DNA from: a virus
Taxonomy: Duplodnaviria > Heunggongvirae > Uroviricota > Caudoviricetes
Direction: 5' to 3' (one strand)
DNA: 25,288 nucleotides
IMG/VR virus record: IMGVR_UViG_2565956635_000009
Location: 1-25,288 of that record
The notes under the pieces are model-generated. The model did not search any database. It was not told the DNA's origin and saw only the letters and a list, made by a program, of their open reading frames with translations. The position numbers and the translations under genes were made by a program. Shown here piece by piece: positions 14,878 to 16,199 of this stretch; the stretch's first letter is position 1; each line of letters begins with the position of its first letter.

Positions 14878-15549
14878 TCACTCTCCTTTGATGCGAATGC
14901 CTGCAGCGCGTGGCACATTAACTTCCACGATGCGCACTGTTGGTTTGTACATCTCAATCGCTGTCAGCCAGTCAGCTCCTGTCATGCGCTTTTCCGCATC
15001 GCCATTAGTCCACTGAACCGGTACACCAATAGCCTTCATCGCGATTTCTATTTCCCCGGCAATGGCGCTTTTTCCGCAACCAGTAAAACCAGAAACAACG
15101 ACAAGAACTTCACCTTTGGCTGGTTTTATTTCCCGTGCTTCCAGTTCTGCAATGCGCTTACTTCCATCCGAGATAACACCTTCGTAATACTCACGCTGCT
15201 CGTTGAGTTTTGATTTTGTCTCCTCAAGCTCAACTCGCAGCTTCTCAACCGTTAGCGCAATTTCCTCGTTCTCCTGATCGCGGAGTTTGATGTATTGCTG
15301 GTTTCTTTCCCGTTCATCCAGTAGTGCCTGCACTACTTCAGGGTTGAAAGCTGCGATATAACGAGCGTTGTTCTCTGCGTTTTTCTGTTCGTCGAATCCT
15401 GGCCAGTCGACAATATCTCCGTGATGATTATCACCTGGTGTGTGCACGGCGTACGTGCCGTATTTGCCCGGCGAAATAAATGCGACCCATTCGCCTTGTG
15501 TTGCCTGTTTTGCTATCTCGCGCAGCGCCTGATAGTTAATTTTGCTCAC
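14878..15549 (-). CDS. Ea22/Ead-like prophage protein with C-terminal Walker-A-like motif (223 aa)
   Basis: GTG start with AGGAGG site, overlapping the upstream stop (GTGA). N-terminus MSKINYQALREIAKQATQGEWV resembles the conserved N-terminus of the Ea22-like family as I recall it; central coiled coil; C-terminal VLVVVSGFTGCGKS is a P-loop-like G-x4-GKS motif. Confidence 0.55.
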   Translation of the reverse strand: MSKINYQALREIAKQATQGEWVAFISPGKYGTYAVHTPGDNHHGDIVDWPGFDEQKNAENNARYIAAFNPEVVQALLDERERNQQYIKLRDQENEEIALTVEKLRVELEETKSKLNEQREYYEGVISDGSKRIAELEAREIKPAKGEVLVVVSGFTGCGKSAIAGEIEIAMKAIGVPVQWTNGDAEKRMTGADWLTAIEMYKPTVRIVEVNVPRAAGIRIKGE

Positions 15550-16199
15550 TGGCCGCCTCCTTTGCGAAGCTGTTCAGCGATATCTTCGAGAACGCCATCA
15601 GAGAATGAGCGGTCAAAATCGCCTTCCCGCGCATTAGCCATAAACTCAGTAGAGGTAAGAATCATCCGGGCAATATCCGCGGCGTTCTTCGCAGTATCAT
15701 CAATAAAACCAGCTTCCCAAGCAGCCAGCATTCTGTTCGCCACAAAGTAAGCGCCCTCCTTGCGTGCTTCAGTCTTCACTTCATCCAGGAAAGTGTCGGT
15801 CGCAGGAGTGGTTTTTTGTGGTGATAGGGCGATACGAATTGTTTCAAGAGCTGGATCTATTTCCACTGTTGGCACTTTGATAAAACCAAGCTGCACGCCA
15901 TTCATAATGAACGTGCGGCGATCCTCACATATCGCCTTCAGCCCCGCATTCTCCGCCGCCAGCGCCGAAAACTTCTCGTGTGCCAACTTAACAGCCGCAT
16001 CAGCCTGCTTAATTGACTCAGTCGCTCTCTGGTGGTCTTCGGCCAGCGCATTAGCACGCACCAGTTGCACTTCCAGTTGCGTTGCCAAATCGCTGATCAG
16101 CTTTGCCACACTGCGCATATCAACGGCACCACATTCTGCTTTCAGTTCCGAAGCCATCTCATGCCCGGCGGAAACTAACCCTTTGATATTACTTTCCAT
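15546..16199 (-). CDS. Hypothetical helical/coiled-coil protein (217 aa)
   Basis: ORF with GAGGG site; 4-bp overlap with the downstream gene; Ala/Glu-rich. Confidence 0.55.
   Translation of the reverse strand: MESNIKGLVSAGHEMASELKAECGAVDMRSVAKLISDLATQLEVQLVRANALAEDHQRATESIKQADAAVKLAHEKFSALAAENAGLKAICEDRRTFIMNGVQLGFIKVPTVEIDPALETIRIALSPQKTTPATDTFLDEVKTEARKEGAYFVANRMLAAWEAGFIDDTAKNAADIARMILTSTEFMANAREGDFDRSFSDGVLEDIAEQLRKGGGQ

Follow-up and report, generated by a model that had tools for sequence, protein, structure and literature searches.

An apparent mosaic Ead/Ea22-like protein with a Walker A-bearing mini-domain in a prophage of Escherichia coli

The stretch of DNA analyzed here (the window, 25,288 nucleotides [nt], IMG/VR record IMGVR_UViG_2565956635_000009) is a prophage in Escherichia coli and is 99.8% identical over the stretch to the chromosome of E. 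coli HB37; all nucleotide positions are those of the window. One of its minus-strand genes specifies a protein of 223 amino acid residues which, judged from its profile matches, belongs to the Ead/Ea22 family and is a mosaic, assembled from the shared N-terminal segment, a helical stalk, and a C-terminal module of about 70 residues. The module appears to be an autonomous domain, unannotated and widespread among phages, with a predicted relationship to the P-loop nucleoside triphosphatases (NTPases) in its first half only. An Ea22-type mosaic carrying a mini P-loop head is the explanation that we favor as a whole, somewhat ahead of an even call; for the separate proposition that the module binds a phosphate or nucleotide ligand the balance is even or tips slightly toward binding. 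We read the module as a phosphate- or nucleotide-binding unit that would depend on oligomerization through the Ea22 coiled coil, and not as a self-sufficient ATPase, since it is too small on its own.

The assignment to the Ead/Ea22 family is carried by Pfam PF13935 (Ead_Ea22), which matches residues 2-137 with E=1.4e-40 and 139.6 bits against a cut-off of 27, and which is covered over profile positions 1-139 of 139. The 223-residue protein also matches phrog_250 (E=5.9e-80). In a study of Ea22 proteins (PMC10834534) the family is described as having the N-terminal segment in common, a coiled coil in the middle, and portable C-terminal domains that are unlike one another; the same mosaic construction is seen here. 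The C-terminal 87 residues are 94-100% identical among proteins with many unrelated N-termini, the parts being joined at KRIAELEA, and the reverse case is also found. In the lambda Ea22/Ead family the likeness extends to the N-terminal segment with its helical region, to the exchangeable C-terminal domain, and to the status of an early accessory phage gene. By comparison, the module of the window protein is unrelated to the lambda C-terminal domain solved by nuclear magnetic resonance, and it appears to differ from those of the three Shiga toxin (Stx) phage Ea22 variants described in that study (PMC10834534). The location differs as well, the gene lying past a P-like helicase loader in an epsilon15/phiV10-type genome and not in a lambdoid exo-xis region. 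When the 223-residue protein was compared by phmmer with the sequences of all PDB chains, no Ea22 chain was among the matches at E≤10.

A DUF551 protein is encoded in the window by a separate gene (13866-14585, minus strand), two positions 3′ of the 223-residue gene. One of the Stx-phage Ea22 variants is reported to have DUF551 as its C-terminal domain (PMC10834534). The domain is separate here and Ea22-fused there, so that the same modules are found both on Ea22 stalks and as genes of their own.

The extent of the module was defined by an exhaustive HMMER search with residues 137-223 (E≤0.001), which yielded 447 representative proteins. Among the 150 matches listed, the alignment is almost always limited to query positions ~8-80, and the module occupies one end, N- or C-terminal, of proteins 110-623 residues long, the remainder of which consists mostly of unannotated mosaic segments. 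A second search, seeded with divergent members, added 593 further matches, mostly stand-alone proteins of 71-88 residues; genes for such proteins occur in alpha- and betaproteobacterial prophages and in metagenomes. Lengths of 71-72 residues are represented, an example of 72 residues being MSEITVTVSGPVGCGKSAIAGEIEIAMKALGVPVRYADEAAALSEKRMTHADWQGYLEMYQPSVVLVEKIER, and stand-alone members stop 2-4 residues past the position corresponding to E209. A relative is encoded by 221 IMG/VR contigs, and the module itself is present in 365 of 5426 complete E. coli genomes, including 81 places on plasmid records; at the one plasmid locus examined the module lies beside phage holin and lysis genes. The P1-related phage D6 carries it, and homologues of 35-40% identity are located inside jumbo-phage proteins of 347-380 residues (Ralstonia and Burkholderia phages), which are the most informative distant homologues. 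The module is widespread in phages of alpha-, beta-, and gammaproteobacteria. No Pfam family covers it, PHROGs place it only in families of unknown function, and a literature search found no publication that describes the module or ties it to Ea22.

In the jumbo phages the module is located mid-protein in ORF127 of Ralstonia phage RSL2 (L102 1994-3136) and in gene 138 of Burkholderia phage SURPRISE13 (L103 2012-3052). The phages are virulent, the carrier proteins are without annotated function, and only Walker A, G175, W194, and IVE-x-N are kept in them. A 3030-bp contig binned to a Collinsella sp. metagenome-assembled genome (L004; JAIHTM010000290.1) encodes a module 99% identical in protein to that of E. 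coli; the probable explanation is wrong binning of an enterobacterial phage fragment, and not a true extension of host range. In some betaproteobacterial mosaic proteins, P0207 among them, the module is fused C-terminal to a DUF4406 domain, and in E. coli C311 a DUF4406 gene lies directly 5′ of the module-carrying gene. Domains of nucleotide metabolism may thus be repeated companions of the module.

The part of the module that suggests a ligand is its loop. Residues 148-166 of the 223-residue protein read VLVVVSGFTGCGKSAIAGE, in which the strand VLVVV precedes GFTGCGKS (residues 154-161). This Walker A motif lies between a hydrophobic strand and a helix (VLVVVSGFTGCGKS) and is retained in homologues, as expected of a P-loop. 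Conservation was assessed in 102 family members at ≤85% mutual identity and in a separate alignment of eight sequences to which the jumbo-phage homologues had been added. G154, G157, K160, S161, A162, G165, E166, A173, G175, E186, P203, V205, and E209 are invariant in all 102 members, and G159, E168, and W194 are present in 101. Eleven positions stay invariant in the eight-sequence alignment with the most distant relatives, namely G154, G157, G159, K160, S161, A162, G165, G175, E186, W194, and E209. The last of these ends the segment VRIVE209, which matches the hhhhE pattern of a Walker B motif and is a candidate for that role. Retention of Walker A together with hhhhE in distant relatives is the expected signature of a phosphate/Mg site. 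On this pattern of conservation the GKS motif is a conserved Walker A and more than a chance match. An aspartate-containing NGD after the second strand was considered as an equivalent of the LDGD of adenosine 5′-phosphosulfate (APS) kinase; it is not conserved among the stand-alone and jumbo-phage members and was dropped as a defining residue.

The module is under strong purifying selection. The ratio of nonsynonymous to synonymous substitution rates (dN/dS) is ~0.02-0.2 in most pairwise comparisons and never near 1, and the synonymous sites are saturated in sequences whose proteins are still 80-88% identical.

Among the closest known systems are APS kinase (CysC; PF01583) and related small-molecule P-loop kinases; residues 29-63 of E. 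coli CysC align with the first part of the module, in which Walker A and a helix are flanked by two strands. Alignment of the family profile with E. coli CysC using hhalign gave a probability of 95% over 35 columns, from the first strand through the P-loop and helix to the next strand. The weak Pfam matches of the 102 members fall mainly on P-loop families, AAA_18 being matched by 67 members, APS_kinase by 61 (best E=3.9e-5), and AAA_16 by 59. The layout would correspond roughly to the N-terminal half of an APS-kinase/SIMIBI-type nucleotide-binding core, and SIMIBI-class P-loop NTPases are among the closest systems (dethiobiotin synthetase 3fgn, SRP54 5l3v, and the GPN-loop GTPase 5hci). The module as a monomer was modeled using AlphaFold from alignments of 32 and 102 sequences, with mean predicted local distance difference test (pLDDT) values of 84.7 and 81.7. 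In both models Walker A lies at a strand-to-helix junction and the first helix opens exactly at K160.

The best matches of the family profile among PDB sequences are two designed proteins, the "phosphate-loop protein" 6c2u and the de novo ATPase PL2x4_2 (9jix), at E=0.036-0.037, which is not significant. Like the module, these are very small strand-P-loop-helix units; unlike it they are artificial, so that they offer an analogy for how the module might work, and not homology. Designed minimal P-loop proteins are not known to bind phosphate ligands unless they are oligomeric or built as repeats.

A number of results weigh against a P-loop head. The module, with ~70 residues and at most three strand-like segments, is under half of a P-loop NTPase core; a complete alpha/beta core with a parallel sheet of at least five strands was not found, and the protein ends ~60 residues past the P-loop. 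It lacks the additional strands, the base-recognition elements, and the lid that every known P-loop NTPase has. In comparison with APS kinase the C-terminal two thirds of the enzyme, substrate and lid regions included, are absent, so that there is no full kinase domain, and the CysC alignment is limited to the first 35 residues of the module. With E. coli GntK hhalign aligned the Walker A segment only (24 columns, probability 84%), upon which a resemblance of the second half to gluconate kinase, noticed by eye, was dropped; with BioD there was no match (probability 0.3%). The window protein itself has no Pfam or NCBIfam P-loop match at the curated cut-off: the NCBIfam matches are sub-threshold, and APS_kinase (PF01583) scores 16.2 against 21.1 bits over profile positions 3-40 of 152. 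DSSP assigns no strands at all in either monomer model, which suggests that the extended segments are unpartnered in the monomer, and a Foldseek search of the model against the PDB returned nothing at E<4. Nearly the whole module is strongly conserved, so that the invariance of Walker A is weakly specific within the close family and the argument from it leans on a few distant homologues. The NGD triplet is restricted to the enterobacterial branch, and oligomerization of the 223-residue protein is carried over from other Ea22 proteins.

The first-pass annotation of this locus, made from the letters of the sequence, had described an Ea22/Ead-like N-terminus followed by a hydrophobic strand and G-x4-GKS, and had suggested nucleotide binding. 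Both descriptive points hold, the motif being conserved in homologues. The suggestion of nucleotide binding stands in part: the conserved Walker A and the 95% alignment to CysC favor it, whereas the module amounts to less than half of a P-loop core and reaches no family cut-off. Similarly, profile searches recover the Ea22 N-terminal domain with P-loop matches remaining below threshold, and structure prediction reproduces the helix starting at K160 but neither DSSP strands nor a Foldseek match to a P-loop fold.

How a mini P-loop head on an Ea22 stalk might function can be sketched as follows. According to two reports (PMC10834534; PMC7093339), full-length Ea22 proteins are tetramers and promote lysogeny in lambda and Stx phages, both properties having been shown for lambda, Stx-phage, and P27 Ea22. 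If the stalk of the window protein likewise oligomerizes, two or four modules would be brought together. The Lys and Ser of the P-loop and the terminal Glu might then hold, with Mg2+, the phosphates of a nucleotide or other phosphorylated ligand, the site lying at the interface between modules. In this scheme an early accessory protein would have the module as its exchangeable "head", and the module would act alone where it is a separate gene.

It is also conceivable, although we think it unlikely, that the module is a true miniature NTPase or kinase, in which two or four copies form a full active site with K160/S161 and E209 as Walker A and B, and which hydrolyzes ATP or GTP or phosphorylates a small molecule. 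This reading is opposed by the lack of candidate base-binding, lid, or arginine-finger elements, by the termination of stand-alone members so soon after E209, and by profile matches that stop within the first 35 residues; moreover, we know of no natural P-loop enzyme as small as the module.

To an equally low degree we entertain the view that the Walker A-like loop is structural or a contact surface only, and that the module is a ligand-free protein-protein interaction head aimed at a host protein. Ea22 C-terminal domains are regarded in PMC10834534 as portable interaction modules whose host partners are unknown, and this view would agree with the conservation of nearly every position of the module, beyond the P-loop, with the lack of a canonical sheet in the models, and with the failure to reach any family threshold. 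The jumbo-phage homologues, however, have diverged over most of their length and yet keep GxxGxGKSA and IVE-x-N, which is the pattern predicted by ligand binding, and the strand-loop-helix geometry and the CysC homology are typical of functional P-loops.

A bolder extension of the mini P-loop explanation, which we hold to be improbable at present, is that the module stands for a family of minimal P-loop proteins occurring in nature, 71 residues long where they stand alone, which bind, and perhaps hydrolyze or sequester, nucleotides only as oligomers. To our knowledge, 71 residues is far below the size of any characterized P-loop NTPase.

The gene directly upstream specifies a 217-residue protein, a homologue of P22 Eae ("eae-like"). 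In tblastn comparisons it has 58% identity to the eae-like protein of phiV10 over its whole length, and its residues 131-214 have 84.5% identity to P22 eae. It matches PHROGs 14548 and 614, both of unknown function, and a Pfam scan assigned it to no family. The first-pass annotation had called it an Ala/Glu-rich coiled-coil protein; the composition is confirmed (16% Ala, 9% Glu), and the only signal related to coiled coils is a weak Pfam ADIP match (E=0.071). In residues 1-100, A/E/L/K/Q/R make up 55% and P+G 4%, a composition that fits long helices in the N-terminal half. In other phages parts of this Eae homologue are fused into Ea22-like proteins. Direct BLASTP comparison of the 217- and 223-residue proteins revealed no similarity, and they are therefore not recent paralogues, although both have modules in common with the same PHROG profiles. 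In a 152-residue database protein (P0193), residues 1 to ~88 of the Eae homologue are followed directly by the second half of the P-loop module, starting at MKAIGVPV...; it corresponds to window positions 15546-16199 fused to 14878-15040, with the Ea22 N-terminus and Walker A deleted, and looks like a recombination or deletion product of the two adjacent genes.

The two reading frames were correctly recognized in the first-pass annotation, including the overlap of the GTG start of the second gene (15549-15547) with the TGA stop of the first (15548-15546), which share the four bases GTGA; both lie on the minus strand, and RefSeq calls the same two coding sequences (CDSs) in HB37, GTG start included (Table 1). 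The further claim, that the genes form a tightly coupled pair, is not borne out, in the sense of a dedicated pairing, by comparison with other phages. A dedicated two-component system, be it a regulator with an ATPase or a toxin-antitoxin-like pair, could be argued from the GTGA overlap with its strong Shine-Dalgarno sequence, from the frequent proximity of Eae-like and Ead/Ea22-like genes, from PHROG profiles 250 and 368, each of which covers parts of both proteins, and from P0193, in which the N-terminus of Eae is fused to the second half of the module. The gene directly 5′ of the module gene, however, differs in each case examined. In phiV10 it is an open reading frame (ORF) of 74 codons, the eae-like gene lying one position further up; in D6 it is an upf87.4-like ORF; and in other prophages it is a member of the YfdS family, a DUF4406 gene, another Ea22-like gene, or a methyltransferase gene. 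The arrangement seen in the window occurs in 1 of the 5426 E. coli genomes, as against the 365 with the module, and outside the enterobacteria the module mostly has a gene to itself. In ten viral contigs, for which raw ORF translations were read without a family search, these stand-alone genes had no recurrent neighbor. PADLOC gave no significant match to a defense system, and neighboring genes are just as tightly spaced: from the 217-residue gene onward the intervals in the operon are -4, +1, +3, -8, and -8 nt. Because all genes of the operon are spaced within -8 to +3 nt, the overlap is ordinary packing of a phage operon. Translational coupling of the two genes is real, but it does not argue for a two-protein system; the two genes are not conserved as a unit, and we regard a dedicated system as very improbable indeed.

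Table 1. Positions of the 217- and 223-residue genes, their junction, and the features within and next to them (window numbering)
Feature	Position	Strand	Basis or remark
217-residue gene, Eae homologue	15546..16199	-	ATG-start ORF; RefSeq CDS in HB37
223-residue protein, apparent mosaic Ead/Ea22-like	14878..15549	-	GTG-start ORF; HB37 WP_170171952.1 "ead/Ea22-like family protein"
GTGA start/stop overlap of the 223-residue gene with the 217-residue gene	15546..15549	-	Sequence; junction AAAGGAGGCGGCCAGTGAGC
GGAGG Shine-Dalgarno sequence of the 223-residue gene	15556..15560	-	Sequence; 6 nt 5′ of GTG, within the end of the 217-residue gene
Ead/Ea22 N-terminal segment and central helical (putative coiled-coil) region, residues 2-137	15139..15546	-	Pfam PF13935
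Predicted mini P-loop module, residues ~146-213	14911..15114	-	Strand, Walker A, helix, strand, helix, strand ending in Glu
Walker A, G154-F-T-G-C-G-K160-S161	15067..15090	-	DNA GGT TTT ACT GGT TGC GGA AAA AGC
V205-R-I-V-E209, candidate Walker-B-like hhhhE	14923..14937	-	End of last strand; E209 invariant
95-residue gene, phrog_2821 (function unknown)	14589..14876	-	ATG 1 nt past the stop of the 223-residue gene

The window is a phiV10/epsilon15-type (Uetakevirus) prophage of E. coli and has its gene order in common with phiV10; in HB37 the prophage integrase adjoins guaA. Along the minus strand the genes for a DnaT-like initiator, a lambda-P-like helicase loader, and a DUF1064 protein precede the 217- and 223-residue genes, followed by the 95-residue ORF, the DUF551 protein, an ASCH protein, a small regulator, and terminase. 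The 223-residue gene is an early-operon gene, 3′ of the replication genes and non-essential-looking. The program-made list of ORFs has, at its 3′ side, a TTG-start ORF of 122 codons (14589-14957, minus strand) that overlaps the end of the 223-residue gene by 80 nt; RefSeq and PHROG 2821 favor the shorter product of 95 residues with ATG at 14876.

Two further observations concern other parts of the window. Six copies of an iteron-like repeat of 18-24 nt (ATCCCGTTTTTGGGATCATTCAAC and variants) are found at 17920-18072, within the gene for the DnaT-like replication initiator (17508-18323, minus strand). This array is probably the phage replication origin, laid out like lambda ori within gene O. 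A tRNA-Arg gene (anticodon TCT; 9960-10036, plus strand) is located between the portal/small ORFs and the terminase genes, on the strand opposite to the surrounding genes, and is annotated in HB37 as well.

Were the module to bind nothing, the 223-residue gene would be an ordinary mosaic accessory gene. Should it bind nucleotides, the module would rank as the smallest P-loop unit in nature, bearing on the minimal requirements and the origin of the P-loop fold, and it would be relevant to phage proteins that manipulate nucleotide pools or signals. A family of minimal P-loop proteins, if real, would be a natural counterpart of the designed P-loop prototypes that model the origin of the fold, and its members might be a phage-encoded "sponge" for nucleotides or signals, or the smallest NTPase in nature. 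Proteins of the Ea22 family and the "ea" region are among the least understood early gene products of temperate phages, and a phosphate-binding head, if demonstrated, would provide a mutable handle on them in K160 and E209.

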